Part shown: in pieces, positions 2,441-42,900 of the stretch
How the letters are laid out: each line of letters begins with the position of its first letter
How positions within the stretch are numbered: position 1 is the stretch's first letter
Source of the DNA: Folioceros fuciformis
Taxonomy: Eukaryota
DNA length: 45,231 nucleotides
NCBI GenBank assembly: GCA_049999805.1
Contig: JBNGIO010006273.1
Coordinates: forward strand, 115,637 to 160,867
Reading direction: 5' to 3'
Notes under the pieces: model-generated
Told to the model about the DNA's origin: nothing
Databases searched by the model: none
Seen by the model: only the letters and a program-made list of their open reading frames with translations
Program-made: the position numbers and the translations under genes

Positions 2441-3030
2441 AGTAATGGCATAAGTGAAATAAGGTGAAAATTAAAAGTAGAAAGGTGAAAGCTAAATCTA
2501 GAGTTGTCTTGATGAAGAAGCAAGTATGCTTCTTGCTGCCTTTGAAAACAAAATGTGTGTTCCAGGCAAAACCTCCTAAGAAGGATGGAGTTGTAATGAC
2601 CACTAGTATTCTAGGATGAGTGGTGTGTATCATTCCCAGTTTTAGCAGTGGCTTAGCTGTGGAGTATAAATAGGCCAGTGTTAGGGTCTTAAGGATACTG
2701 TGATACACTGATACACAAAGAGGCAGACAGTGAGAAGTCTAGCCTGGAGGCATAGCTGTGGAGGGCTTGAAGAGCAAGCTTGTCAGATAGAGTCGAGGGC
2801 AGTAGCCAGTGGGGCGTAGATCGCCAGACTCTTTTGTAAGTAACTGGAATAAAGAGCAGCACCTAGAGGAGGTGGTCTGCGAGTCGTCAGTGGACGGCGG
2901 GCTACTTGGAGCCTAGTGCTGAGTCGTGTGAGAGGGAGTGAGTGAATTGCAAGTGGAGCGCTGCGAAGTGTTTAGACGAGATTCGAGGCCGTTGCTTCCT
3001 TTTACGCTGCGTAAGGAAGGGGGCGTTACT
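2441..3030 (+). repeat. 5' LTR (590 bp), AGTAA...TTACT
   Basis: Direct repeat of 7745-8293. Contains TATAAATA (2665-2672) and AATAAA (2848-2853). Confidence 0.95.
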
Positions 3031-3034
3031 TAGT

Positions 3035-3046
3035 TGGTATCAGAGC
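3035..3046 (+). promoter_or_regulatory. Primer binding site complementary to the 3' end of initiator tRNA-Met
   Basis: TGGTATCAGAGC, 4 nt after the end of the 5' LTR. Confidence 0.93.
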
Positions 3047-3064
3047 ATAGTCTATTCCTCCAAG

Positions 3065-4249
3065 ATGGCTAAGCGCCAGAGGATGCAAATACGAGAGGTT
3101 TCTCCTAATCCCCCGCCTCAACAACTCGAGGAAAATCAAGGCAAGGAGATGCCGCCTACCGACTCAGCAGGACCATCCGGAGACAAATCTGAAGATTGGA
3201 AGACGCAGATGATGGTCGCTTTACGACAAATTCTCCCCGAAATATTGCCGGAAGTTCTCCAAGATTTGACAGCATCTGGGAAAAAGGCAAGGAAGGATCC
3301 ACAGCCTATAGCTCTACAAAATGAGGAAGCGGAAGACAATCAAGATCCTTTTCATATCTTCGAAGCAGTTCCGAGGGCAAATCTGAAGTTGACCGTGCCA
3401 GATAAGTATGAGGGAGTAAGGGATCTACAAGCTATTGATTCCTGGATTTACTCTATTGAAAGCTATCTTGCTTCATCTGGCCTGGAGCCTAAGCATTACT
3501 TAGGAACTGTGGGCAACTTTCTCAAAGGGTATGCTTTGGTGTGGTGGCGAAGTTATTGTGCTAATGTAGCCCAGGGAAATCGAGCACACACCATCACAGA
3601 CTAGGCATCTTTCAAAGAGGCCTTGAAGAAGCAGTTCCAACCTGCAAATGCTTTACGCTTGAGCCGGTAGCTGCTTGATAATATAAAGCAGACAGGTACT
3701 GTACGAGAATATGTAAGTACATTCAGTGAAGCTGTTATGCATTGTACTTCAATGAGTGAAGTTGACAAACTACATCGCTTCATGGTTGGTTTGAAGGACT
3801 GGGCTGCTAACAGAATTGAGTTGTATAGTCCAATGACCTTGGCAGAGGCCATAACAGCAGCAGATGCTATCCCAGATACCTTTCATTCCAACACATCCAA
3901 CTCCTTAAGAAGATTTCGAGGTAATACCCGTGGACGGTATATGCAAACTAGAGTTTCTTCCAATAATGTTGCAAGAGGGACGCCCAAGGATAATGAAAGG
4001 AGTACAGTTGCAAGAGGCAACTCCAGTGCGAGCTTCCGTGGGAGAAATCGAGGAGTGCGTAGGGGGCGCGGACCTCAGAGAACAGGGACAATGGGTTCTC
4101 GGAAAGGAGTTTGTTTTGCTTGTGGAGAGCCGGGACATTACGCGAATGAATGCCCCAATACTCAACAAACTTTGAATGTTGTTCAAGACAACCCACAGCC
4201 CCAAAGACTCAGGATTACAGAAGTATCCGGATCTGAAAATCCCAAATGA
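3065..4249 (+). pseudogene. gag: Retrotransposon gag (capsid plus CCHC nucleocapsid), two internal TAG stops
   Basis: ATG at 3065. Capsid-like PDKYEGVRD...ALVWW and zinc knuckle CFACGEPGHYANEC. Internal TAG at 3602-3604 and 3668-3670; ends TGA 4247-4249. Confidence 0.9.
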
Positions 4250-7200
4250 CGGGATTGGCCACATGTTGCACAGGCTACATGTGGTGACTCTCAAGATGCT
4301 GAGGACAGCATTATTCATAGGGCAGGTGGAGAGCTCATGTATATAGAAGGATGTGTGAATCGTGAAGAAGCGAAGATGTTGCTTGATCTAGCAGCAACAC
4401 ATAATTTCATTTCTCCTGGCAGAGCAAGTAAGCTTGGTTTGACATGGGCTAGTATTTCAGAGCCATGTACAGTGAAACAAGCAAAAGAAAAGCTGCAGTT
4501 CTTAGGACAGCTAGAAAAAGTTCCTTTGCAGATAGGCAATTGGACAGGACAAGCAAGCTTCACAGTTGTAGATATGGATGATCATGAAATCATCTTGGGC
4601 TTAGAATGGATGAAGGCCAATAAGGTATGTGTAGACGTGGACTCACGCACCATACAGATTGTAGGAGATGAAAAGCACAAAGTGAGTTGTGCAGTCCTTG
4701 AGCATCAGCTTGGGCACAAGATTGATGAAGTCATCTCTAAGAAAGAGCTCAAGCGTTGTGTCAAAAATGGAGAGGAACTCTATTTGTTGGTGTTGCAAGG
4801 ACTAGAAGATGGTCTTGAGATGGAATCTCAGAAACAACCAAAGATTCCAAAGGAGATACAGGATGTCTTAGATGAGTTTAAAGACTTGATGCCTACTGAG
4901 TTACCTCTTTTACCTCAACGGAGAGTTGTAGATCATGAAATTGATCTAAAACCAGGAAGTGTACCGCCATCAAGAGCGCCATATAGATTGTCGCTAGATG
5001 AGCTTCAAGAATTGAAGAGACAAATGTCTAACTTGTTAGCCAAGGGCTATGTTAGAGTCTCAAAATCCCCATTTGGTGCGCCAGTATTGTTTACGCGAAA
5101 GAAGAATGGAGGATTAAGGTTATGCTTGGATTACAGAGCACTCAACCAGATAACAGTCAAAAATTCCTATCCTTTGCCAAGGATGGATGATATGTTTGAC
5201 AGGTTGAAAGGTGCTAAGTATTTTACCAGACTGGATTTGATGGCTGGTTATTACCAGATTCGCATCGCAGAAGGACATGAATACAAAACTGCTTGTAGGA
5301 CAAGGTATGGATCTTTTGAATTTCTAGTCATGCCATTTGGACTCACTAATGCACCAGCCACATTTCAGACTCTCATGAATAGTATATTCAGAGATCTGTT
5401 GGATGAGTGTGTTGTGATCTATTTGGATGACATTTTGATATTCAGTTCTACCTTAGAGGAGCATGTCCAACACTTGAGGAAAGTGTTGGAAAGGTCAAGG
5501 GCAAATTCTTTGTTCTTAGCTATAACAAAGTGTGACTTTGTTAAGGAAGAAATAGACTTCCTTGGATTCATTGTCTCTGCTGATGGAATTAGGATGGATC
5601 CTGATAAGGTAAAAGCCATACAGAGTTGGCTGCCGCCAAGCAATGTGCATGAAGTGCGTATGTTTTTAGGATTGGCTAGCGTGTACAGAAGATTTGTACC
5701 AATGTTTGCCAAAATTGCTGCCCCATTAACTGATCTCTTGAAGAAGGTGAAGACATGGAAGTGGGATGAAGAATGTCAAAGGGCATTCGAGTTTCTCAAG
5801 TTGAAACTCAGCACTACCCCAGTACTAGCAATCTATGATCCAAAGAAATATATAGAAGTGTATACTGATGCGTCAGATACAGCTATTGGAGGAGTGCTTA
5901 TGCAAGAAGGTAGGCCAGTGGCTTACGAATCAAGAAAGTTGCATGAACATGAGAGGAAATACCCCACATATGAGAAGGAGATGACAGTCGTCATCAATTG
6001 TCTCAAGATTTGGAGACACTATCTTCTTGGAAGATCTTTTGTGCTGTACACAGATAATGTAAGTACAAGCTTCTTTTCTAATCAGCTGCGACTAAATGCT
6101 AGACAAGCAAGATGGCAAGATTTCCTAGCGATGTATGATGTGGAGATTAAGTACAAGCCAGGGAAGGAAAATCTCGTGGCAGATGCTCTTAGTCGCAAGC
6201 AGGAGTTGAGTTTAATGTCTATTTTTAAGCTGAAGAATCCTAATCTAGCTACAACGCGGGTGGTGATTGAGCCAAGGGACACTCACACGCAGATTAAAGA
6301 GGCTTATCTGCGCGATCCATTAGTGCAAGATTGGATCAACGAGATGGAGCAACCGGGGTCTAAGTTTAAGCTTAGAAATGGCTTGTTAATGTTCAAGCAA
6401 AACAGGATTGTGATTCCTGATTCTCAAGAGTTGAGAAAAAAGTTGCTTGCAGAATGTCACGATGTACTAAGTGCTGGTCATCGGGGAATTGACACAACTT
6501 ATGAGAAGTTGAAGAAGCTGTTTTACTAGCCTGGAATGTACAAACATACTGTAGAGTATGTGAAGTCTTGTGTAGACTGTCAGCAGGATAAAGTAGAGCA
6601 GACAAATCCACGAGGTTTGTTGCAACCCCTGCCTATTCCAAGTGGGCCTTGGAAGAGTATATCAATGGATTTTGTTATGCCATTGCCACCCAGTAATGGA
6701 TACACAGCTATCATGACAGTTGTTGATAGGTTCAGCAAGCAAGCACACTTTATCCCCACGAAGACGCAAGTGAAGGCTTTAGAAGTTGCTCAATTGTTTA
6801 AGAAGCATATCTATGTGTTACATGGATTGCCTATGCAAATTGTGAGTGATAGAGATCCTAGATTCACAGCGGAAATTTGGCAACAGCTTATGAAGAGCTT
6901 GGGAGTGCAACTATGTCTAAGTACAGCATATCACCCTGATACAGATGGATCTACAGAAAGAGTAAACAAAATCCAAGAGGAATACTTACGACACTATGTA
7001 CAAATGGACCAGAGGAACTGGAGTAATCATCTTGAGGATGCAGAGTTTTGTTATAACAATACTGTACATAGCTCCACAGGCTATACACCTTTTCAGATGA
7101 CAGGTAACGAAGCAATGGACGCAGTTTCCATGTTGAATGCTGACGTGTTTGAGACAGTAGCAAGAGAACCACGTGAATTTATTGAGCAGTTAAGCGCCAG

Positions 7201-7714
7201 GCATGAAATTGCTAAGAGGATTTTGGCCAAAGCTCAAGACAGGCAAAAGAAGTTTGCTGATAGGCACAGGAAAGAGGCAGAATTTCAAGTGGGTGACAAG
7301 GTTTGGGTAAAGTTGAAACACTTCCCAGTACCTCAAGGATTGTTCCCAAAGTTAAGGCCTAAGTATGGAGGTCCTTTCGTAGTTCTAAAGCGCATTGGGA
7401 ATGTGGCTTACAAACTACAACTGCCTAATTGGATCTTCTCTCATGATGTGTTTCATGTCTCTTTGCTGAAACCATTTGTGATTTCGAAAGAGAATGAAGA
7501 CATGAACAGGAAAGACTATGTTATCCTGGTTCAATATAACCATAGTCTGCAAGAGATTGTTGAATTTCTAGCAGAAAGAGAAGTGCCTTATGTCCGTGGT
7601 AATGTTCTAGAGTATCTAGTAAGACTTCGTGATTTTGCAGATCCTGTCTGGGTTTCACTTCAAGATGTGCAACAAGGATCATGGATGATCTCACGTTATA
7701 CTGCAGGTCATTGA
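4250..7714 (+). pseudogene. pol: Retrotransposon pol: protease, reverse transcriptase, RNase H, integrase and chromodomain-like tail; one internal TAG
   Basis: PR LLDLAATHNF (degenerate DSG); RT CLDYRALN...YLDDILI; RH TDASDTAIGG...NLVADALSR; INT HHCC zinc finger, SMDF, SDRDPRF and a GPF motif; tail LEYLVRL...PVWVS. TAG at 6527-6529 falls in the conserved YWP. Same frame as gag. Confidence 0.93.
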
Positions 7715-7732
7715 GGACAATGACATCTTCCT

Positions 7733-7744
7733 AGTGGGGGAGAG
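7733..7744 (+). promoter_or_regulatory. Polypurine tract
   Basis: AGTGGGGGAGAG immediately before the 3' LTR. Confidence 0.85.
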
Positions 7745-8293
7745 AGTAATGGCATAAGTGAAACAAGGTGAAAGTTAAAAGTAGGAAGGTGAAAGCTAAA
7801 TCTAGAGCTGTCTTGATGAAGAAGCAAGTATGCTTTTTGCTGCCTTTGGAAACAAAATGTGTGTTCCAAGCAAAACCTCCTAAGAAGGATGGAGTTGTAA
7901 TGACCACTAGTATTCTAGGATGAGTGGTGTGTATCATTCCTAGTTTTAACAGTGGCTTAGCTGTGGAGTATAAATAGGCCAGTATTAGGGTCTTAAGGAT
8001 ACTGTGATACACTGATACACAAAGAGGGCTTGAAGAGCAATCTTGTCTAATAGAGTCGAGGGCAGTAGCCAGTGGGGCGTAGATCGCCAGACTCTTTTGT
8101 AAGTAACTGGAATAAAGAGCAGCACCTAGAGGAGGTGGTCTGCGAGTCGTCAGAGGACGGCAGGCTACTTGGAACCTAGTGCTGAGTCGTGTGAGAGGGA
8201 GTGAGTGAATTGCAAGTGGAGCGCTGCGGAGTGTTTAGACGAGATTCAAGGCCGGTGCTTCCTTTTACGCTGCGTAAGGAAGGGGGCGTTACT
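7745..8293 (+). repeat. 3' LTR (549 bp)
   Basis: Copy of 2441-3030 with a 41-bp indel and about 19 substitutions by manual count. Confidence 0.95.
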
Positions 8294-8822
8294 ACTTAAG
8301 TACTTTCTAGGCGTTCCGCCTAGCCACTATGCAATTGGTGGGCAACTTTTTTTTTCACTTCAACCGTCTTATCATGGAGCAGGGACTTTTAAAACTATGT
8401 CAAAGGGAATTGCTTAAACGCCGGCAACTGCAAAAAGGGGCACAATTGCCGTGGATGGCTTCAATTTTGCGGGATTACCCTTTATAGTCTGAGCAAATAC
8501 AACTTGTCCCTGAACCTGAGGTGGGTAGATATGTACGTCTATGGAAAAGAATTGTAGGACAACGTCTGCCGTAATGAAATCGAAGGGCATAATCATAGTA
8601 GTGTATGCCTCAAACCCATTTCCAAGATACTCTGGCAAAACAGTGTCCAACTTACAAAATTTGAAGAAAATGATTGCTAAGACGGTGAAGGTGAAGCTGC
8701 GAACCTATGGACTTATGTACTATTTCACCCGTACCTAGCACTCCTGAAAGTGCTGCGATGCCTTCCTCCAATGCCTGCGCCAGCATAGGGTGACAAGCAT
8801 GACATACAACAGCGCTTTCAGA

Positions 8823-11092: not shown

Positions 11093-14000
11093 TCAGTCTG
11101 TAGAGCCGTTGTTCAGATTTTCCATCAGACTGTCCACCTTGTCGTAGATGGCTTTTCTCTGTGGGTGGCCCAAGTCGTCCACCACAAACCGATGAACTTC
11201 ATTCTCTGTCTCAATCCAGGTGGCCCCGGGCCGCTTCGATACTCCTGCCACCTTCATCTGCTTTCTTACCTCAGCAGCCTCCGGGGTTCTGCCGGCTGCG
11301 GCGTAGATGTTGGACATCAGAACATACGGAGCTGCTGCGCCTGGATCGATTTGAATGAGTTGGTCGAAGGCCCGAGCTGCCACTTCCACATTGTTGTGTG
11401 TTTGACATGCCCCGAGGACAGACATCCACAGGCTGGCCTCGGCTGGTACCGGCATTCTTTTGATGAAGTCCTCAGCCTCCTGGAAATGGCCAGCGCGACT
11501 TAGAAGGTCCACCATGCAGGCATAGTGTGTCATGGTGAAGGTGATTCCCAGCTTCTCAGCAGCTGTTGAGAAAATTTGGCAGCCTTCATCTACCAGACCA
11601 CAGTGACTGCAGGCAAAGAGGACAGATATTAAAGTGACCTCGTTGGGCTTGATGCCCTCCTGCTGCATCTGCTGGAACAGTTCCAGGGCTGTTTTAGCCT
11701 GTCCATGCTGGGCGTATGCCCCTATGATCGCATTCCATGACACTACCGTCCGTTTAGGTAAGCTGTCAAACACTCCTCGCGCCTCATCCAAGCTCCCGCC
11801 CTTGGCATACATATCGAGAAGAGTGTTACCAATCACTTCATCTGACTGAAAGCCACTCTTGGTAATCTGGGAATGAAGTTCCTTAACTTCAACTAGGCTG
11901 CTAGAGTCTTTGAGGATGCTTAGGAAAGTTGTTTTGTTCGGTTGGGTGCCTTCGTTTTGCATGTCAAGGAAGAGTGTGAAAGCCTCGTGGCTGATCCCAT
12001 GCTGAGCATAACCACCTATCAGGACATTCCAACAAGCTACGGATTTTTCAGGCAGTTTGTCAAAGAGTTCACGCGCCTCATCCAACCTCCCACATTTTAC
12101 ATACATGTCCACGAGGTTCATCGTCACTGCTGCATCAGACTCCATTCCGCTATTGACCAAATGAGTATGGATCTCCTTGCCTTGGGCCAGAGCAGATGTG
12201 GTGCTACATGCTCTTAGGATGCTCAAGTATGTAGCCTTGTCCGGCTGAATACCTTCTCCAAGCATGTGCCGAAATAACTGCAGGGCCTTCTCTGCATCCC
12301 CTTGTTGAGCATATCCACCAATCAGAACCGTCCACGAGATGACATCGCTCTTTGACAACTTGTGGAAGACTTCGTGTGCCTCGTCCATACTCCCACACTT
12401 GACGTACATGGCCATGAGCGCATTGCCTACTACGTCATCAATCTTTACTCCTCCCTCCAGAAGCTGGGTATGTATTTTCTTGCCTTCGTCAAGGGCTGTG
12501 ATGATTGCACATCCTTTGAGGATGCTCAGAATAGTCACCTTGTCTGGCTCCAAGCCCTCGTCTTGCATTTGCTTGGACAGTAGCAAACCCTCTTGAGCTT
12601 GTCCATGTTGCACATATCCAGCAATCATGGTATTCCACGAAACAACAGTTTTCTCTGGTAGTCCATCAAACAGCTTACGTGCTTCATCAAGGCACCCACA
12701 CTTGGCATAAGTGTCCACAAAAGCATTCCTCAGAACAACGTCCGACTGAACTCCACTCTTAGTCACCTGGAATTCAATTTGTTTCAATTTTTCTAGGGCC
12801 GATATGCTGCCAGCTGCTTGCACAACTGCCAGGAATGTTACTTTATCAGGTTCAATGCCAGCCTGCAGCATTTGCTCATACAGGATAAGCGCCCTCTCAC
12901 CATCTCCATCCTGTGCATAACCTCCGATAATAACCGTCCATGAAACAACATCTGGAGCTGACAAGGAATCGAAGCATTTCTGTGCATCCCGCATGCTCCC
13001 ACATCTGGCATACATGTCGACAAGGGTGCTTCCAACAAGATCATCCTTCTCTAAGCCATATTTCAGCACTTTGGCATGAATAGTTTTAGCCAGACTGAGG
13101 TGCTCCCTGCTCTGACAGGCCTTCAGCAAGCTCAAAAAGGTCATTCTGTCTGGAACCATGCCTTCCTTCAACATCTCAGAGAACAGGTGGACAGCTTCTT
13201 GACTTTGCCCATGCTGGGTGTACGCGCCAATGATTGCATTCCATGAGACTATATCTTGCTGTGGCAATTTACGAAAAATGTTCCTAGCGTCATCAAGGTT
13301 CCCAGCTCTGCCATACATGTCGACAAGGGTGTTGCCAATAGCCGAATCCAACCCCAATCCAACTTCAACCACCTGTGCATGGATCTGTTTGCCCTGTTCC
13401 ACACTCGGAGAACTGCTACATGCCTTAAGAACAGCCAAGAATGTAACCCTGTTGGGCTCCACGCCCTCCTCCTGCATCCGTTTGTAAAGTTGAAGAGCTT
13501 CCTCAAAACGCTTGTGCTGAACATATCCTCCAATTAGGGAATTCCAAGACACCGCGCTTCGTTCAGGCAATGTGTCGAACAGTGCGCGTGCCTCATCCAA
13601 ACTTCCACATTTTGCATACATGTCGACGAGACTGCTACCGATGGCAACATCAATCTTGATGTCGCTGTCTGTAAGCAGCTCATGAATTTGCTTGCCTTCA
13701 AGAAGAGCACCGATGCTGGCACAGCCCTTAAGTGCACCCATGACTGTGATGCGATCTGGCTTCACCCTCTCCTTCTGCATTCTTGTGAAAAGCTGCAGTG
13801 CCTCACCACCTAGCCCATGCTGTGAATACCCACCAATCATAGCATTCCATGAGGCTACGGTCCTCTCAGGCAACCTTTCGAATATATCCCGAGCCTCGTC
13901 GACAGCTCCAAATTTGGCATACATCGCGATCATAGTGTTTGCCACAGTTGTATCTAATTCCAGTCCACATTTAATGAGCTGGGAGTGCAACTGCTTTCCC

Positions 14001-15635
14001 TCAGCTGGGGCAGGAATGTGGGTACATGCCTTCAACAGGTGTGTGAAAGTGAATCTGTCGGGTGTCAACCCCTGCTGTTTCATGGCCTCAAAAAGTTGCA
14101 CTGCCTCTTCACCTTGACCATGGTCAGCGTACGCAGCAATCATGGTACCCCAGGATTCCACATTCTTCTCCAGCATACCGTCAAACACATTCCGTGCCTC
14201 ACTAAGATTACTAATCCTGCCATACATCTTGACTAGAGCATTTCCAATATCAACATCCAGATGATACCCAGCTGCGACAACCTGCCCGTGGATATCCACA
14301 CTTCGATCTGCAAGTATTGCACCATCGATCTGACTAGCTCTAAGGATGGTCAGAAAGGTGAGCCTGTCGGGCTTCACTCCCTCATCTTGCATTCTCTGGA
14401 GCAGCTGGAAGGTTTCCTGACCACGTCCCTCCTGGACATATCCAGCAATCAGCGCATTCCAGGATGCCACTGCCCTTTCTGGCAGCTTACTGAACACCTT
14501 AACCGCGGCATCTAGCCTCCCACATTTCACATACATGGACACAAGAGTTGTCCCCACAACGGCATCCAACTCCAACCCAGTTTCTTTAAGCTGCGCATGC
14601 ACTCGCATGCCCTCATCCAAAGCAAAAATGTTGCCACAAGCCTTAACTATACTGACAGCAGTGCCTTGACTCAGCCTCACCCCAACAAGCTCCATCTCCT
14701 GAGACAGCTCCAGCGCCTGCCACATCTGCCCATGCTGAAGACATGCACCAATAATAGTATTCCAGGACACCACATCCTTCACCATTAACCCGTCAAACAC
14801 GTTCCTGGCCTCCACCAAGCTCCCACATTTCGCATACATGTCCATCAACGTGTTCCCCACAAATAAATTCCGGTCCAAGCCTGCCTCGCAGATGTGCGCA
14901 TGAACCTCCCTCCCCTCCCCCAAAGCTGATGCACTGGCACACGCTTTCAGCACAGCCACAGTAATGTGGTTATTGGACCTCACATCCGACTGCAACATTT
15001 CCCTGTATAACTTGATAGCCTCCTCCCCCTGCCCAGAATGCGCATGTGCCGAGATTATGGCCTGCCATGTATAAGCGTCTGGTTTAAAACCTGACCGAAA
15101 CACTTGGTCTGCTTCCCACAAACTACGGCACGCAGCAAACAGGCGGATAAGATGGTTGTGAAGAAAAGCATTCGACTCGTACCCTGTGCTCGAAATTAGG
15201 GCCCGTACTCGCCTCCCACAGGCCAGGTCCTTTTCCCTGCTGCACCCCAGCAGAAGAAGGTGCAGGGCCCCACTGCTCACCCGCACTCCCTTCTTGTGCA
15301 GACTATCCAGGCACTCAACAGCCTCATCCAGCCGCCCCTCATCACATAGCCTCCCAATAGCTTCCTCTGCATCGCCACCCACAATCAGCACCTCAACAAA
15401 CACATAACAGGATCACTTCTACACACACATAACAAAGCCATCCAGATCCACATACGCCTGCCGGTTGACATATACACATGAGATAACATCGGCGAGCAGG
15501 AAAATTAACATGGAACATTATCTTACTCACGTCATCATCCTGAGCAGGATGTGAGAAATGCAGGAATGCAGCCCGGCAGTAGCGACAAGGAACGCCGGGA
15601 ATCAAAAGCGGCCGGAGCCGACGCCTGAGAGCCAT
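11093..15635 (-). CDS. PLS-class pentatricopeptide repeat protein, E+ type (organellar RNA-editing specificity factor), about 1460 aa, probably mitochondrial
   Basis: Proposed join 15635-15527 and 15366-11093 (GTAAGA...TGCAG intron, 4383 nt = 1461 codons). Exon 1 encodes the Arg-rich presequence MALRRRLRPLL. Twelve ~101-aa L-S-P triplets (LVDMYAKCG...VSWN.II.GY), then L2/S2, E1/E2, PG box KRPGATWIE and E+ (HPQ). Stops before any HxE/CxxC deaminase motif. Confidence 0.95.
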
Positions 15636-22223: not shown

Positions 22224-22473
22224 AAGCTTGCACACGTTCAAACNNNNNNNNNNNNNNNNNNNNNNNNNNNNNNNNNNNNNNNNNNNNNNNNNNNNNNNNN
22301 NNNNNNNNNNNNNNNNNNNNNNNNNNNNNNNNNNNNNNNNNNNTTCAAACCTTGTGGGCTGGAGGGAAGAAGGCCTCATGAGCTTACACACCTTCAAACC
22401 TTGTGGGCTGGAGGGAAGAAGGCCTCATGAGCTTACACACCTTCAAACCTTACCGGGCTGGAGGGAAGAAGGC
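22224..22473. repeat. 49-bp tandem repeat spanning a 100-N assembly gap (22244-22343)
   Basis: TTCAAACCTT..GGGCTGGAGGGAAGAAGGC units start at 22344, 22393 and 22442. The left gap flank AAGCTTGCACACGTTCAAAC matches the unit junction. Confidence 0.88.
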
Positions 22474-25848: not shown

Positions 25849-28800
25849 TCAGGACAGAACGGCCATGGAGCGTTGAAGAACGCCACAATCCCTATGCTCC
25901 TTGCACACCCAGGCCACCTGGGGCTCTCCCTCAGAGTACCTGACCTTGTAAAGGTTGAAAAGTTGCCCGATGTTCTTCCCTCTGAGGAACTCCTCCAACC
26001 ACATCCCGGCATCTTGCAACTGGCACCCATCGCAATCCAGCCTCAAGTCCTCCATCACGGCCTCCAACGACAGGGCACCGGCAGTGAGCGGCAAGGCAGC
26101 CCCGAGCTCGGAGAAGTTAGGGATGGCATTCCCAATCCCGGCCGCCACATGAGCCCCGACCTTCACCAGAAGGTTCAGCAGCTTCAAGCCGTTGAGCAAC
26201 AGGGGACGCAGCCGCCGGGCCTTCGCGTCCTCCCACAGGAGCTCGAGGCCGTGCTGGTTAGGGATCCCGTGCGGAGCGCCTCCCCGGTGTTCGCACATGA
26301 GATGCAGGCGCACGGGCACCACCTCCCCCGGCCGCATCATTGCCAGCAGCTTCCGGGTGTTGCTCACGTCGTTGGTGGTGAAGTACACCAGCCGGGGCAC
26401 AGTCCTCTCCTGCAGCTGCGTGGAGAAGTTCATGAGCCGGTCCATCTTGCAGCTCAGCTCCCGCAGCGTCTCTTGCTGCAGCATCTGGATTTTGTCAATC
26501 TGCGGCCGCAGCGCAGCCAGGATACCATTCGTCAGCTCCTCCATGGTGTTCTCCATCCTGCTCAGAGCCTTCATCAGCCGTTCCTCCAGATCGTCGATGC
26601 GCGACAAGAGCATGTCATTGCCCCCGTTATTGCCCGACGGGCTGCGCGGCTTCGGATACTCCCTCGCATACTTCGGCTCGGAAAACTTGTGAGGCTTGCG
26701 AAGCTCCTCCCTGCTGGGCATCTTCAGCCTCTCGGCCACTTCCTCCAGATCGGTGTACTGCCGATCCAGGTAATTCTTCACATCCCTGGCCCCGAGCAGC
26801 GCCACTACGCTGTCGCAGCTAGACGGAAGATTCCCCTCCGCCGCCCTGGGCCACGTAAACATGTGGTCCAGCTTGGCAGCCGATCGCCATTCCTGCTTCA
26901 GCTCCTCCACTCTCACAGCCTGTTCCTTCCTGTGCACACACAGCGTCAGCTGCTGAACGCATTCAGGCCTCAGAATGCCCTCTACAAGGGCAACACCTTG
27001 GCAGCCCTTGTGGGAGGCACAGAAGGAGCGGATTTTCTCCACTACGTTCATGCGGATGAAGTCCATGGTCTCAATGTGACTCTTGGAGGATCTCACCAGC
27101 ACATCCACATAGTACCCGATGTCCCCGCTGCACTCAATCAGGATCTCCATCCCGCTGATGCATATGCATATCAGGTTCCTCTCCAGGGTGTAGTCCATGC
27201 TCATGCCCATCCTCAGAAACTCGTTGTACAGGATGACCTGCATGATTTTGCCCACGGCTGTCAGAAGAATGAGGAAACCAGACAAGGAACAAGATGGAGT
27301 GGGGCCGAATGAAGGACTGACCTGGAATCTAGGGAAGAAGCCTGGAGTGAGAAATGTTTTGACACGATCTCCGCATTCAAGCCTGCGGCCCAGGTAAGTA
27401 CAGTTGGTTTCGCGAGAGGAGTCCTTCATGGGCCATACCAACTGCCTTCTGCCGTTCAAGGCCCGCTTGCCCTGGTCATCCAGAGACGTTGGCACGAAGA
27501 AGCCGGCATCTGGATTGCCAGGTTCCTTTTCGTAGCATAGCTCCAGCTTGAGCATGAGCTGGACAAGATCGTCCGTGCTGATGCCAACGAGCTTCTTGCC
27601 CGAGTCCCTGCTTAAGGAACGCTGTAGAACCCTCTTCAAGGTTTTCAAGCTGGTGAAACCGTTGATATCAGAAGGCATTGCCTGGAAGGAGCCGAAGTTG
27701 ATGAGGTGCCCAAGCACCCGATGCCCGAACCAGTGTGGGTTCACAACGATGAAGTCCAGGTTCTCGAAGTAGATGATGTCACCCACATTGTGAAGATAGG
27801 ATGCAACGGCCCGCCGCCTGCCTTCTACAGTTTCTCGGACTGGTTTGGGTGTTCTGCGGCCCATGGACTTCAGGCTCAGCAGGGAGCGGCTGAGGTTGTT
27901 GAAGTCGCTGAACTTCATAGTGGGCTGAGATGGGTTGTCGGCAATCCACTTCGCCAAGATGACCCTCATTTTGTCACACTCTTCGGGCACCGTGGGCAGC
28001 TTCCGCGTCAGGAGATCACGGAAGCTGTCCAGGACCGTTTCCACAAGAGGGTGCACGCTTTCGAAGGAGCGGGCATTGACTGCTTGGATCTCACAGCAAA
28101 TGTGGACGATCTTGTCGAATCTGGAGCGGAGATGTTCTACAAGCTCTGCTGCCCAGGCTACCAGATCAGCTCGTCTACCACCCACTTTATCCAAGTTGCT
28201 CAGCACCACAAGGACGCAAGGCAGAACTGTTGCCGGTCGCCTTGTGTTGGAGGCTATGAAGCGGAGCCAGTACATGAACTCCTCCTCCAGCTGGAGAAGT
28301 GACTTCCTTCTCCCTGTCTCTGGATCCGCGCAGTTGAAGACGAAGAGGAAGACGCAGGCATTGGTGGTGTCAGGGAACATGTAGTCATGGAGAGCATGGA
28401 ACTCTTCCTGCCCAGCCAAATCCCACATCGAGATCCGCATGTCGACATCGTCTTTGAGAAGGTGGATCTCAAGACCTCTTGTCCTCTTGGTGGCATCTCT
28501 CCCGTTGATGCATGCGTGCAGCTTTGGTTGTCTTGACATAAATTCCTGGCTGGTGTACACCAGCCCTGTTATGCAGGACTTCTTCTCCAATGCTCGCAAG
28601 CTTCGGAGCATGGACTTCTTCAAGGTTGTCTTGCCAGCATAAGGAAATCCAATGAGGAAAAGGCGTGCAGATTTGGGGCTCACTTGCCGCATCTCCTTCA
28701 GGACATTCACATACTCTTCAGCGTTCCTTCTTAGCTGCTCTTCCACTGCCGGCACCTTCCCCTCTCGCTCCAAAGGGGTGTTCCCCAAGTCGATCTTCTT

Positions 28801-30279
28801 GAGGGAGGTGTTCACTTCCAGGAGCTCCATCAGGGATTTGTAGATGACTTCACCTGCAAAGGACTCACAGTCACATAGGTTGAGGCGCTCGAGAGTGGTA
28901 TTATCTTCTAGGCTCTTCAAAATTGTCTGCCACTCCTGTATGGTGAAGTAGCTGTAGTTGAGACCTAGCATGGACAGAGATGTGTTGCGTCGCAGCATTT
29001 CAGCTATGGTATGATCGTAACCTGGGTTGTCCTCCTCAACCAGACTGCTGTGTCGGCGTCCAGTAAAGTGCAACCACTTGAGAGTATGATTCCCTCTCAA
29101 GTGGCGGCTCTCGCCATGACTGCTCCCACCATGGCTGCTGTGGTCGTTGGAGCCATGGCTGGAGAGAGAGCCTTGCACCGACCCCGACGCGATGCTGTTG
29201 AGGGACAGAGAAAGAGCATGGTTGCTACTCTGGATGAGAATACTAGGCCGTATAGGTGTAATGACAGGACCCATTACATCAACGCTACTACTGCCATCCA
29301 TGCCCTCATGCACCAGAGGGGTAAGTAGCAGTTCAAGCCCACCCGTATCCAGGTAATCCTCCCAACCAATGTAGAGCTCCTCCAGCATTTTGTTCTCCTT
29401 CAAAGCTTCCGCAATGTACCCTGCACCTGCCGCCCCAATTCCGGTGCCTGTCATGCTCAGAAACCTCAGCGACCCAGTAGCAAGGACGTCAGCAATGTGT
29501 TTGGCCCCTTCATCACCAACCGTATCCTCCACAAGCAGCGAATCCAGCGCTGAACAACTGTTAGCCTTCAATGCACCCGCGATACAACCCACCCCTTCAG
29601 GACCCAACCCAATACCCCGAACATCCAGCTTCTTCAAACTGATATTGGTCTGCAACATGGTAGCCAAGTGTTGCGCCCCTTTATCCCCCAGCTTCCAATT
29701 CCCACACAAATGCAGCAGCTCCAAAGCGGAGTGCGCATTGGACTGCAGGCCCCTGGCAATGACCTTCATCCCAGGCGGCTTCAGGCCCGTGTTCTGCATG
29801 TACAGGGCCTTCAGGGTGCAGTTGGTCTGCAGCATAATCCCAATATGATGGCAGGAGGGCTTGGACCCGACCACCCAGTTGTAGCTTATGTCCAGAGATT
29901 TCAGCACATTGTTGAAGCGGAGGCCCTTGCAGAGCTGCTCCACTTCTGCGGGCTTCTTGAGCTTCATGTCCGATACATTGAGGTGGGTAAGGGAGCTGCT
30001 CTGCCCCAGCAGCCGCAGCATGCGGAGCTTGAGCCTGGGCCCTCCTCTCGCCCCCCCGGCCTCTCTCTTCTTGTCGTCGAAGCAGTCCTCGTACTCTTTC
30101 AGCACCACAGTCTGAAGGGAGGAAGGGGTGGCCAGGAGCTGCTTCACCAGCTGCTGCAGCCTGGGGGGCAGCCCAGCCATTTCCTCCTCCAAACCCGAGG
30201 ACGCCGTGGAAGCAGTGGAAGACATGGAATTCAGTGTGACATCCATGCTGGCGGTGCTGGAGGTGTCCGAGTCTTCCAT
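25849..30279 (-). CDS. TORNADO1-like LRR-Roc-COR (ROCO) protein, two coding exons (30279-27322, 27237-25849)
   Basis: RI-like LRRs, P-loop GFPYAGKTTL, G3 WDLAGQEEFHALHD, TRN1-family motifs YWLRFIASN, YLGRRLEC, PGFFPRFQ|V, LHLMCEHR, VAWVC. 84-nt GT-AG intron at 27321-27238. First ATG at 30279. Confidence 0.9.
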   Translation of the reverse strand: MEDSDTSSTASMDVTLNSMSSTASTASSGLEEEMAGLPPRLQQLVKQLLATPSSLQTVVLKEYEDCFDDKKREAGGARGGPRLKLRMLRLLGQSSSLTHLNVSDMKLKKPAEVEQLCKGLRFNNVLKSLDISYNWVVGSKPSCHHIGIMLQTNCTLKALYMQNTGLKPPGMKVIARGLQSNAHSALELLHLCGNWKLGDKGAQHLATMLQTNISLKKLDVRGIGLGPEGVGCIAGALKANSCSALDSLLVEDTVGDEGAKHIADVLATGSLRFLSMTGTGIGAAGAGYIAEALKENKMLEELYIGWEDYLDTGGLELLLTPLVHEGMDGSSSVDVMGPVITPIRPSILIQSSNHALSLSLNSIASGSVQGSLSSHGSNDHSSHGGSSHGESRHLRGNHTLKWLHFTGRRHSSLVEEDNPGYDHTIAEMLRRNTSLSMLGLNYSYFTIQEWQTILKSLEDNTTLERLNLCDCESFAGEVIYKSLMELLEVNTSLKKIDLGNTPLEREGKVPAVEEQLRRNAEEYVNVLKEMRQVSPKSARLFLIGFPYAGKTTLKKSMLRSLRALEKKSCITGLVYTSQEFMSRQPKLHACINGRDATKRTRGLEIHLLKDDVDMRISMWDLAGQEEFHALHDYMFPDTTNACVFLFVFNCADPETGRRKSLLQLEEEFMYWLRFIASNTRRPATVLPCVLVVLSNLDKVGGRRADLVAWAAELVEHLRSRFDKIVHICCEIQAVNARSFESVHPLVETVLDSFRDLLTRKLPTVPEECDKMRVILAKWIADNPSQPTMKFSDFNNLSRSLLSLKSMGRRTPKPVRETVEGRRRAVASYLHNVGDIIYFENLDFIVVNPHWFGHRVLGHLINFGSFQAMPSDINGFTSLKTLKRVLQRSLSRDSGKKLVGISTDDLVQLMLKLELCYEKEPGNPDAGFFVPTSLDDQGKRALNGRRQLVWPMKDSSRETNCTYLGRRLECGDRVKTFLTPGFFPRFQVSPSFGPTPSCSLSGFLILLTAVGKIMQVILYNEFLRMGMSMDYTLERNLICICISGMEILIECSGDIGYYVDVLVRSSKSHIETMDFIRMNVVEKIRSFCASHKGCQGVALVEGILRPECVQQLTLCVHRKEQAVRVEELKQEWRSAAKLDHMFTWPRAAEGNLPSSCDSVVALLGARDVKNYLDRQYTDLEEVAERLKMPSREELRKPHKFSEPKYAREYPKPRSPSGNNGGNDMLLSRIDDLEERLMKALSRMENTMEELTNGILAALRPQIDKIQMLQQETLRELSCKMDRLMNFSTQLQERTVPRLVYFTTNDVSNTRKLLAMMRPGEVVPVRLHLMCEHRGGAPHGIPNQHGLELLWEDAKARRLRPLLLNGLKLLNLLVKVGAHVAAGIGNAIPNFSELGAALPLTAGALSLEAVMEDLRLDCDGCQLQDAGMWLEEFLRGKNIGQLFNLYKVRYSEGEPQVAWVCKEHRDCGVLQRSMAVLS

Positions 30280-31497
30280 TCTGCCACCACCCACCTGGCC
30301 CCCTCCAACCAATTCCCTCACCACAAGCCCTTCCAACCACAGCAACGTTCCGGAGCAAGGAGACTAAAAGCCAGCGAAGGCCATGCCCCGAGCGCAGGAG
30401 AAACTGAGACCAAGGAAATGACCTGGAGCACAGAGACCAGAAACTCCAGGCGGCAGATCGAATCGACCTTTGCTGCTGTGTACCTCCGATAGGAAGTTCC
30501 CACCGTCATCAGGACGCCTCTTGCCTGATGGGACTGAGAAAGAGGCATCGAAAGAGACAGGAGGAAACGTCTCAGAAGCCTCCGTCGTACGGCCGAATCT
30601 GAATACGTACATGTATTTGTTTATGTCTAGGTTAGTGTCCACTAGACACGGCCCTCGCGTCGACCAGGTGTGTCTGGCAGTCATCGAATTTGGCTACGGT
30701 CAAAGCCCGCTCAGGTCATCAGTTCACCACCCAAAACACATGTGATGCAACATTTTCTGTACATTTTAGCGTCTCGATAATTCTGAGAACGCGCTTTCTG
30801 CCCAGTCGTATGCAGCAAAGTGTTAAACCCAGGTCAGTGGACGAATCTAGTGGTAGCCCACAGAGCAGGAGGGAGTCTTTTGTGTGCCGACAGAGAAGGC
30901 AAGGTAGTCAAGGGGAAAATATCCAATGCCATCTCTAACAAATCCAAAAGCTTGAGGCAAGGGGCACGTGGAGTAGTATGTACTTCTGCAGCACCGACCC
31001 CGAGAATGCACCTTCCCATGAAAATCCCAATCACTATTTAGACGAGGTGAATTACTTGATTTCTGCTTAGCTTACCAGTACAGGGCACGGACCTGGAGCG
31101 ATGTAACTTCCCCAGAGTCTGGTGACAAGGAATCGAATACATAGGACGTCCGGAGCGAATTGTACTCCACAAGCCTGAACTTGGAACGCTGCAAGGGCTT
31201 CTGTTGTATGCATGCCAACAAACCACGAAGATCATGGATAAAGTAGGTTGTCAATCCCGTCTTAAAGAGCGGGGGAGATGGGGCTTCTGAGCACGTGGCG
31301 CATCTTGATACACTGCCCAAGCCCCCCCCTCGGGCCCTCCCTTAACGAAACCAGCATTACCCCGGCTGACAGTTCCTGTTGCTTGCAACTGGTCTTTTAC
31401 ACTTTTCGAAGCTGGCGATGTGTGGGCAATGTCTTAAAGTGCAACCCGAGAGTGAGGTTGGCTGTCCGCAGACTGTAAGTAACGGGTCTTCGTGGGT

Positions 31498-34303: not shown

Positions 34304-35513
<1,210 letters not shown>

Positions 35514-39952: not shown

Positions 39953-42900
39953 GACCGAGAGAACAAGGCCTCTATGGAGGGGTTGGGGGAGCTCCGCAGT
40001 TGGCACATGGGCAGCTATGGTCGGTTTGTGTCCAAGTAATCAGAATGCGAGGGGATTTAACACGGTGGGGAAGGTTTCTAATTCATCTGATGTTAGCTGG
40101 ACAAAAGCCGTGGCAGAGAACGAAGCTCAGTACGGAGGCCTGAGGTGAATTATACTTGTAAACAAGCACAGGCAAGTGCTTCCCAAGAATATGCCTCGGT
40201 TTTAGCAAAGGAGGGTCCAGGTCTTCAGTTGGGCCCTTTGGCGAATGTTCTTACAGACGCGAGGTACTTTCAGCAGGAGGAAGACAAGCTCGTGGCCAGC
40301 TTTGTTGTGGGGCGGCTGCTGTCAAGAGGCCCCCCCACAGTGGAGGAGTTGGAGATTTGGGCAACTCAAGTATCCGGGTGCCCTCCAGCTTATGTTTTCC
40401 TCAAGGCTGACGGTTCTTTTCAGATCAAATGTGACGAGGCAGCCGGCGCGCAGGCTATCTTACACACAACCCTGCCATTTCGAGGCTCCATCCCGGTGCT
40501 GGTGGAAGCTTGGTCTCCAGGGAACACAATTATGCAGTCGAAAATCAAAAGGCAATTTCTTTGGGTGGGGCTTCCTACTCTGCCCGTGCAGCTCATCCTG
40601 ATGATACGAAAGATCTTAGGTACTATAGGCCGAGTGGTGGAGGTTCCCAAGGTGGATTCGCATTTCTTTGATAGCCACAAGCCCCCTTGCTTTGGCGTTA
40701 GGGTTGATAGCCTCCTCGCCCTGCCTGAAGGAGTCATCATTCGCGACCCGGAAGACCCATCTAGATGCTTTACCCAGCTGTTCGAGTACCCGGATTTGCC
40801 TGTCAGGTGCGGAGTCTGTGGGCTGAAAAGCCACCTTAAGCAGGCGTGTCCTCTTCGTGCTTGTGTTGGCAGTGGAGGAGACAAAGCTAAGAAGGCCCAT
40901 CCAGGTCCACTGCCGAGCTTTAAAGGAGTGCTTAGGAAAACGTGGAGGTCCAACCCAGAAACGCAGCAGTGGGCCAACCGAATTCAGAAACTCTTCTTCT
41001 CGGGTACTGAGGCTGCAACCAACGCGCACATCAAAATTTGCGTGCTCATGAGGAGGAAGGTGGGCAAAGATTTCTTTTATTGGCTACCAAAGGTGGGCGA
41101 TCTTAGAGCCCTGCCTACTCGCTCCCTCTAGTCTGGGACCGCAATGGGGCATCAGCTTCCTGCCTTCTGGGATAATGTTAAGCTTAGAATTCGGGATATG
41201 CTACAGGTGGGTTTGGGTTTAGACAAACCAACGGGGAATCAGTATCTTCAAGGGGCCAGGCATAGTATGGTCTATCATGGTTTGGAAGACTGCTCTTCCA
41301 TCCTGTTTGCGGTCACATTGATCGAGTTGGGTGAGGAGTGCCAAGTTCGGAACAATAGCGTGGCACAGTGGTTGGGGGAATCACAGACGTTGGCATTCAT
41401 GAAAGACGCGAAGTTTGGCAGAGGCAAGGTTACACTGGCGTCTAGGGTGGTCTTCAAAGCTCACCTGGGTTTCTTGGGCTTGCTCATGGCCCCAATATCT
41501 ATTAAATTGCCATGCAAGTGGGAGCTCAAATAGGAAGAAGACATGGTGGCAGAGGGCGTTGTGCCTATGGAGGTGGATCAGGACAAGGAAGAGATCACCC
41601 GGAGAGCAAGGTCGGCATCGGCAAGTAGGCTCAGCGGCCCTCTTAATGAGTGCCATGACACTAGTGGAAGCTCAGATGAGGTGCTATACAGGAATCATCT
41701 TGCATGCCCCACAAGTGTCTTGGCCAGGAGGGACTTGAAGGATATTTTCGACGCCAACAAGCAACACAGCCACTCAGAGACATGGCTGGGTGCTCACAGA
41801 GAGCCTCCCACTTCGTTGAGTGGCTCGGGTGTGTCCCTGGATGCTGTCCCTGAGGGGGGGGTAGATCGGTCCGTGCCTTCTGATAAGCTGGTGGGTGAGG
41901 GAAATCCTCTAGCAACTGGTAAAGGCGCAGATCAGCGAGTATGGAGAAAGGCTCGCAAACCAAAAGCCCTGAGCATGGGGGAAAGGTCTGGGACAAGCTT
42001 TCATGAGAGTCCTACAAGAGAAGACCCTTGCTCTGTGGATGGTGTGCTTGCTGGATCTGTGAGTAGGTGGGAATCGGGGACTTGACGTTACACCAAGGAG
42101 AAGTCGAGGACTGCCAACCCATTCCTTTTTGACAATAGGATCCAGGGCCAGGCAGTGGTCTTGATAATTTCATAGGGTCGGTGGTAAGCCCTTCCGTTTT
42201 GACCAAGCAAGGAACAGAGAAGCCTGAATCGATCGACAAGCTTGCAAGGGCAAGGGCGGTGCAGGAAGGCATCTCTGGAGAGACTCTGGGCGTAGGGGAG
42301 AAGCATGAGTCGGTGGAAAGGCCAGTTACGGTGAGGGTGGGGCAGGACGGTATCTTTGGGGAGTTGATGGGTGCAGAAAGCATAGTCGATATGGTGGCTC
42401 AGGAGGAACCCTTGGCTCTAGCGTTCGCGGGTCAGTCCCCTGACATGTCGGCAGCGGGATCTGGGATTCTCTCCCTGCCGGCAAAGGGTGACGAGGGAGG
42501 TGTTGGTCAGGTGCTTTCGGGGCGGGGTACTAATCGAAAGGCAGGGGAGGACGGTTTGGAGAACAATTCAAATAGGTGGCCTCAACAAGCCCCTCCCGGG
42601 GCTCTAGACGATGGTAGTTTCCAAACACGTCTTAGTGTGTCTTCTCCAGGATTTGTGGAAGGGAGAGGTATGGATTTGCTGCATGCATCCCCTACCGCTA
42701 TGGTGTGGGAAGGCAGAGGGTCGGAGGTGAGAAAGTCAGATGGGGCGGTGATCCAATTTGTCGAGGGGACCCTGGAATTAGACCAGGCTACATCGCAGCG
42801 GATCTCTCTTAACGGTCAGAAGGTCAACTCCACCTCGGCCTCAGATGCAGGCTGGGAGAGGGAGGAGAGCGATCCGCTGGCTGGTAACAAACGTTGTTTG

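Follow-up and report, generated by a model that had tools for sequence, protein, structure and literature searches.

A candidate UGA readthrough cassette at the gag-pol junction of a Ty3/gypsy retrotransposon from Folioceros fuciformis

A retrotransposon in the genome of Folioceros fuciformis carries an in-frame TGA between gag and pol, which raises the question of whether this stop is a translational signal or a nonsense mutation. The element is of the Ty3/gypsy type, 5.85 kb long and complete from one long terminal repeat (LTR) to the other, and lies at 2441-8293 of a 45,231-nt stretch of contig JBNGIO010006273.1 (assembly GCA_049999805.1, positions 115,637 to 160,867, forward strand). This whole stretch is called the window below, and coordinates are counted from its first letter. 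A first-pass annotation of the letters had proposed that the TGA at 4247-4249, the CGG after it, an 8-nt spacer and a stem-loop together form a programmed readthrough cassette setting the ratio of Gag to Gag-Pol. On the sequence evidence assembled here, the cassette is probably the relic of a UGA readthrough signal inherited at the level of the family.

Stop codon, spacer and hairpin at the junction

A single gag-pol frame of 1549 codons runs on the plus strand from the ATG at 3065 to the TGA at 7712 with no frameshift, which bore out the view that both genes share one frame. The gag gene (3065-4249) comprises 394 codons plus the TGA and matched Pfam Retrotrans_gag, Ty3_capsid and zf-CCHC. The pol gene (4250-7714) continues in the gag frame and encodes protease (PR), reverse transcriptase (RT), RNase H (RH), integrase (INT) and an SH3 domain, with Pfam matches to RVP_2, RVT_1, RT_RNaseH, Integrase_H2C2, rve and SH3_Tf2-1 in the Ty3/gypsy order. 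The frame contains four internal stops, TAG 3602 and TAG 3668 in gag, TGA 4247 at the junction and TAG 6527 in pol. Pfam placed the three TAGs within conserved domains, as first proposed, two inside Retrotrans_gag and one inside the integrase zinc-binding domain. The TGA falls instead in a variable linker of about 60 codons, 31 codons past the CCHC zinc knuckle of the nucleocapsid (4112-4153, plus strand; zf-CCHC at aa 349-365) and about 30 codons ahead of the protease domain, and its annotated position between knuckle and protease was thus correct.

The stop stands in the context AAA-TGA-CGG-GAT-TGG (4244-4258, plus strand). It is followed by a spacer of 8 nt (4250-4257) and then by a predicted hairpin (4258-4285, -15.1 kcal/mol), in which GCCACAUGU (4258-4266) pairs with ACAUGUGGU (4277-4285) in a 9-bp stem whose outermost pair is G-U, followed by a U-U mismatch, two G-C pairs and an ACAG loop. 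Context, spacer and hairpin all matched the first description. Ranked among all 4620 28-nt windows of the gag-pol frame, the one starting at 4258 was the most stable, and this locus came first again at window sizes of 36 and 46 nt. Across the 45-kb window, equal stability was reached by 24 of 90154 windows on both strands, at 11 loci including the cassette hairpin itself. By simple arithmetic, the probability that a hairpin of this kind begins 6-10 nt past any given stop was estimated at about 6e-4. Folding of 60 nt at the cassette gave -21.9 kcal/mol (z = -2.56), with 2 of 200 shuffles equally stable; the 46-nt stretches downstream of the three TAGs and of the pol terminator reached only -6.6 to -8.9 kcal/mol, compared with -21.9 at TGA 4247. 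The runner-up 28-nt hairpin of the frame (5464-5491, -14.3 kcal/mol) lies in the RT region directly past the YLDD codons, with no stop nearby.

A search of Rfam placed no family at the cassette, its two weak matches (E 4-6) being far below gathering scores. Frameshifting was ruled out, since gag and pol share a frame, and decoding of the TGA as a sense codon or as selenocysteine was ruled out, as pol itself terminates at TGA 7712. Land plants are also not known to possess the selenocysteine machinery. The hairpin is also not an insertion, since aligned relatives are equally long through the stretch.

Sister copies and distant relatives

Sister copies were viewed through contigs of four runs from the same organism (X1-X4), aligned on 3590-4330. 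The DNA contig sets X1 and X2 contributed 50 and 61 aligned contigs, respectively, and X4 supplied one. Statements on differences between the contigs and the window copy rest on the best 40 of 216 differences, each with a share of about 42% or more in at least one run, and "listed" below refers to these 40. The element belongs to a multi-copy family, with up to nine contigs bearing one variant at site 3750 (X1). Within the element the contigs fragment into pieces of a few hundred bases, and high-depth contigs (about 150-300) were found alongside diverged ones (84-90% alike, depth 5-17).

At 4247-4249 no alternative letter was listed. The X1 depth at 4241-4269 was 315.8, of which two diverged contigs accounted for 19.75, and the cassette appears to be present in the majority sequence of the family. 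The first-pass annotation had named a sense codon at the TGA in most sister copies as the result that would speak against readthrough, and none was seen among the listed differences. The first letter of TAG 3668, in comparison, was replaced in the entire contig depth of X1 (141.6 of 141.6, 4 contigs), X2 (225 of 225, 6 contigs) and X3 (337.5 of 337.5, 7 contigs); as the codon is a sense codon in all contig depth, this stop is private to the window copy. Where the window copy has letters of its own (3646, 3668, 3952, 3982, 4060 and 4086), alternatives had shares of 75-100% in X1 and X2. With TAG 3668 absent from every contig and no majority alternative listed at the TGA, the latter does not behave as a private decay mutation.

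Within the stem, the only difference listed for X1 and X2 was 4260 C>T, which a single diverged contig of each set carries and which converts a C-G pair to U-G and so keeps the pairing. Among the 127 difference places of X1, C>T (31) and G>A (38) dominated. Nearly all differences in X3 were C>T or G>A, resembling bisulfite-treated DNA, and C>T rows of X3 in the stem were therefore not counted as variants. The CpG cytosine at 4250, directly after the TGA, was not among the conversions listed for X3, which would fit CpG methylation of the element, although this is uncertain.

Of 8000 proteins scored in a search with pol, 5404 had E values of up to 1e-30. Among the 120 of these that were listed, the closest relatives (45-55% identical) were chromoviruses of angiosperms, Closterium and Chara, typically single polyproteins of about 1530 aa with a chromodomain, many of them carrying PF00385. 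Both the PR-RT-RNaseH-INT domain order and the closest pol relatives of the element are thus those of the chromovirus branch. PF00385 was not detected in pol at E up to 0.001 or in its last 104 residues at E up to 10, and the chromodomain may be degenerate in the window copy. Fifteen relatives, hand-picked from the 120, were aligned. An exhaustive HMMER search with the gag-PR region found relatives that were only about 26-33% identical, too distant for the stop position to be aligned, and protein word searches with junction residues 300-520 (near and shorter lengths) gave no match at E up to 0.001. A PR-RT-RH search for related loci found no relative in metagenome contigs or viral contigs. A DNA pattern built from the cassette, in which the stop could be any codon, matched two metagenome contigs, both of them unrelated chance matches and neither similar to the window by blastn; a similar pattern (AAA, any codon, CGG through the 5' stem arm) gave 0 matches in viral contigs.

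Known readthrough systems and competing explanations

In type II readthrough signals, the sequence pattern xxA-stop-CGx-xxx-xxG is found in the replicase genes of tobra-, peclu-, furo- and pomoviruses, and the stem begins 8 nt (7-9) past the stop, with 12 or more bp enclosing a loop of about 100 nt or longer; the class, one of those of Beier and Grimm, also covers alphaviruses and coltiviruses (Firth et al. 2011, PMC3159437). The element resembles the plant-virus sites in its UGA-CGG, the A at -1, the G ending the +3 codon and the stem 8 nt downstream. The assignment to type II made at first pass therefore held for the stop, its context motif and the start of the stem, and failed for the extended stem around a loop of about 100 nt. 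The setting also differs, the signal of the element being at an LTR retrotransposon gag-pol junction and the viral signals in an RNA-virus replicase or coat gene.

The fungal Ty3/gypsy chromoviruses offer another comparison. In Tj1 of Schizosaccharomyces japonicus the gag-terminal TGA is required for transposition (PMC4600332), and Tosmo1-3 and Tcry1 have a conserved GAA-TGA-CT (bioRxiv 2022.12.06.519325). The element shares with these a common frame for gag and pol that is split by one TGA, with A before this stop and C after it. It differs in having a hairpin, in being from a land plant and in being a dead copy, whereas the available text on the fungal motif, GAA-TGA-CT(A/G), mentions no downstream structure. 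Murine leukaemia virus, a type III case with UAG-G, an 8-nt spacer and a compact pseudoknot (PMC3159437), sets its Gag:Gag-Pol ratio by gag-pol readthrough and shares with the element an in-frame stop ending gag, the 8-nt spacer and a downstream RNA structure. In contrast to that virus, the element has UGA-C and a simple hairpin whose 4-nt loop is too small for a pseudoknot. Stop suppression had also been proposed or shown before in plant LTR retrotransposons, namely pol-env stop-codon suppression in SIRE1 (cited in PMC2829016) and a proposed readthrough candidate in rice RIRE2 (cited in PMC2754532), although SIRE1 is a Ty1/copia element with its stop between pol and env. With readthrough established in Tj1 and proposed for RIRE2, the rarity stressed at first pass was overstated. 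No gag-pol signal combining UGA-CGG with a hairpin turned up for any land-plant chromovirus in a literature search that did not cover Gao et al. 2003 or the Neumann et al. 2019 supplement, either of which may name plant lineages of the gag-stop-pol type.

If the cassette worked as these systems do, most ribosomes on the full-length RNA would have terminated at UGA 4247 to yield Gag, and a minority would have decoded the UGA by a near-cognate tRNA to yield a Gag-Pol fusion. Readthrough would have been favoured by the leaky UGA-C context, by the adenines 5' of the stop and by the hairpin, which would reach the mRNA entry channel while the UGA is in the A site. Pol would in this way have stayed at a low ratio to Gag, as happens in the fission-yeast chromovirus Tj1 and in murine leukaemia virus. 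We infer that the cassette once promoted readthrough because a random nonsense mutation would be very unlikely to bring together a position in the linker, a complete type II context, the frame's strongest hairpin and the 8-nt spacing.

Several observations weigh against such a signal. The shuffle z-score of the fold is modest, and the hairpin is compact (28 nt, with 11 bp and a 4-nt loop), unlike those of the type II viruses. In the Ty1/copia element Tca2 of Candida albicans, which has a gag-UGA-pol arrangement and a predicted pseudoknot, a yeast reporter showed no readthrough from the junction by itself (PMC2194720), and such anatomy therefore need not mean function. Relatives with 45-55% identical pol have a continuous gag-pol frame: 12 of the 15 aligned were uninterrupted from zinc knuckle to protease (the remaining 3 had no gag part), and in the gag-PR search 14 of the first 20 matches crossed the junction as a single stretch; the stop is therefore not a trait of the wider clade. 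That no majority alternative exists at the TGA is something we infer from the presumably smaller shares of differences beyond the best 40 of the 216, and it concerns the high-depth contigs and not the diverged ones. TAG 3602 likewise had no listed alternative, and the loose end of a diverged copy reads TAG there. The majority lineage therefore appears to bear this capsid-domain stop, and may be gag-defective and copied in trans. Moreover, the protease catalytic motif at 4385-4393 (plus strand) reads D-L-A in alignment with relatives, where 11 of the 12 covering this position have D-T-G and 1 has D-S-G. As the change involves three base differences and is not a simple C>T, it is probably a family trait, and it suggests a dead protease. 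Given TAG 3602 and D-L-A, the lineage may be non-autonomous and helper-copied, and sharing of the TGA is therefore weak proof of function. Of the proposal that readthrough sets the Gag:Gag-Pol ratio, then, the context, the spacer and the strongest hairpin of the frame stood, and the support from sister copies was weakened by TAG 3602 and the degenerate protease.

TAG 3602 and the D-L-A motif also speak for the explanation that a sense codon of the linker became TGA in the founder of a non-autonomous lineage and was amplified in trans by helpers, with the CGG and hairpin being coincidental or the hairpin an inverted repeat from a template switch. Wheat provides a precedent in its abundant non-autonomous or dead-on-arrival copies sharing in-frame stops (PMC9744471), and the predominance of C>T and G>A between copies, together with relatives having one continuous open reading frame (ORF), fits an inherited nonsense mutation too. 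It would nevertheless require the stop to have landed within a linker of about 60 codons in a frame of 1549, and to have coincided with the xxA-TGA-CGx-xxx-xxG context, with the most stable hairpin anywhere in the gag-pol frame and with a spacing of exactly 8 nt; the position of the hairpin alone has the estimated chance per stop given above. An inherited nonsense mutation of this kind is accordingly a serious but doubtful candidate.

It is improbable that the TGA was the true terminator of gag, with Pol made by another route, for instance initiation at ATG 4337, a junction promoter or a sub-genomic RNA, and with the hairpin in some other role such as RNA packaging or dimerisation. The first ATG downstream, at 4337, does open an ORF just within the protease region, and the gag-pol junction of Tca2, which showed no readthrough on its own, contained a promoter (PMC2194720). 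Starting at 4337 would however sacrifice the roughly 29 codons that remain open in the gag frame from the TGA to this ATG, both the context of the stop and the spacer match readthrough sites, and no sign of a promoter or internal ribosome entry site turned up, no search having been aimed at either. Least credible of all is a decay mutation of the window copy alone, the caveat attached at first pass. The copy is old (LTR distance K2P 0.036), and one stop at least, TAG 3668, is private to it, but the high-depth contigs of X1 and X2 had no listed majority alternative at 4247-4249, whereas letters truly private to this copy were listed there at the high shares noted above. A family-level readthrough signal thus remains the preferred reading of the cassette.

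The element, its surroundings and the meaning of the cassette

The element is flanked by a 5-bp target-site duplication, ACTTA, read directly at 2436-2440 and 8294-8298. Its 5' LTR (2441-3030, 590 nt) and 3' LTR (7745-8293, 549 nt) form a direct repeat on the plus strand; over 549 aligned columns they show 19 substitutions, besides an indel of 41 nt, and from the resulting K2P of 0.036 the insertion is not young. The 41 additional bases are in the 5' LTR near 2720-2760. LTR termini are usually TG...CA; those of this element are AG...CT (2441-2446 and 8288-8293). The primer-binding site TGGTATCAGAGC (3035-3046, plus strand) presumably fits the 3' end of plant initiator tRNA-Met, and a polypurine tract, GGGGGAGAG (7736-7744, plus strand), adjoins the 3' LTR. 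Although motifs of RT, RNase H and integrase are present in pol, the window copy is dead, having three further stops and a degenerate protease motif, and holds at best a relic of a signal.

Elsewhere in the window, an intron-free pentatricopeptide repeat (PPR) protein of 1436 aa with a C-terminal E motif is encoded on the minus strand at 11093-15403, where the DNA has a 303-nt periodicity (repeat family D3). We take this protein to be of the PLS class; PPR proteins of such giant size are characteristic of plants whose organelle RNA is heavily edited. An apparently intron-free open frame of 1498 aa on the minus strand (25849-30345) has weak matches to LRR, Roc and COR-A and corresponds to a ROCO-type GTPase. 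The ORF at 34680-35480 (minus strand) has a strong match to a WDR5-type WD40 propeller (E 3.6e-103) and is probably one exon of a WDR5 homologue. A further ORF at 40145-41131 (plus strand) matched DUF4283, a plant-specific domain often linked to retroelement-derived genes, and may be another mobile-element remnant. Together with the PPR protein, this neighbour points to a land plant as host. The 100 N at 22244-22343 are an assembly gap.

The general picture of stop-codon readthrough is unchanged by this locus, the mechanism being textbook knowledge in retroviruses and already proven in one fungal chromovirus. For annotation, an in-frame stop at a gag-pol boundary should not automatically be taken as decay when intact elements are counted. 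If real, the cassette would add a land-plant Ty3/gypsy family to the few LTR retrotransposons that ration Pol through stop-codon readthrough, and its 45 nt of context, spacer and minimal 28-nt hairpin stimulator would offer a compact system for studying stem-stimulated UGA readthrough in plants. We lean slightly towards the wider view that a land-plant chromovirus-like family evolved a virus-type cassette (xxA-UGA-CGG, 8-nt spacer and stem) inside a frame that is continuous in its relatives, and rationed Pol via the same plant UGA-decoding tRNAs. If that is true, it would represent convergence between an endogenous retroelement and the replicase signals of virgaviruses.

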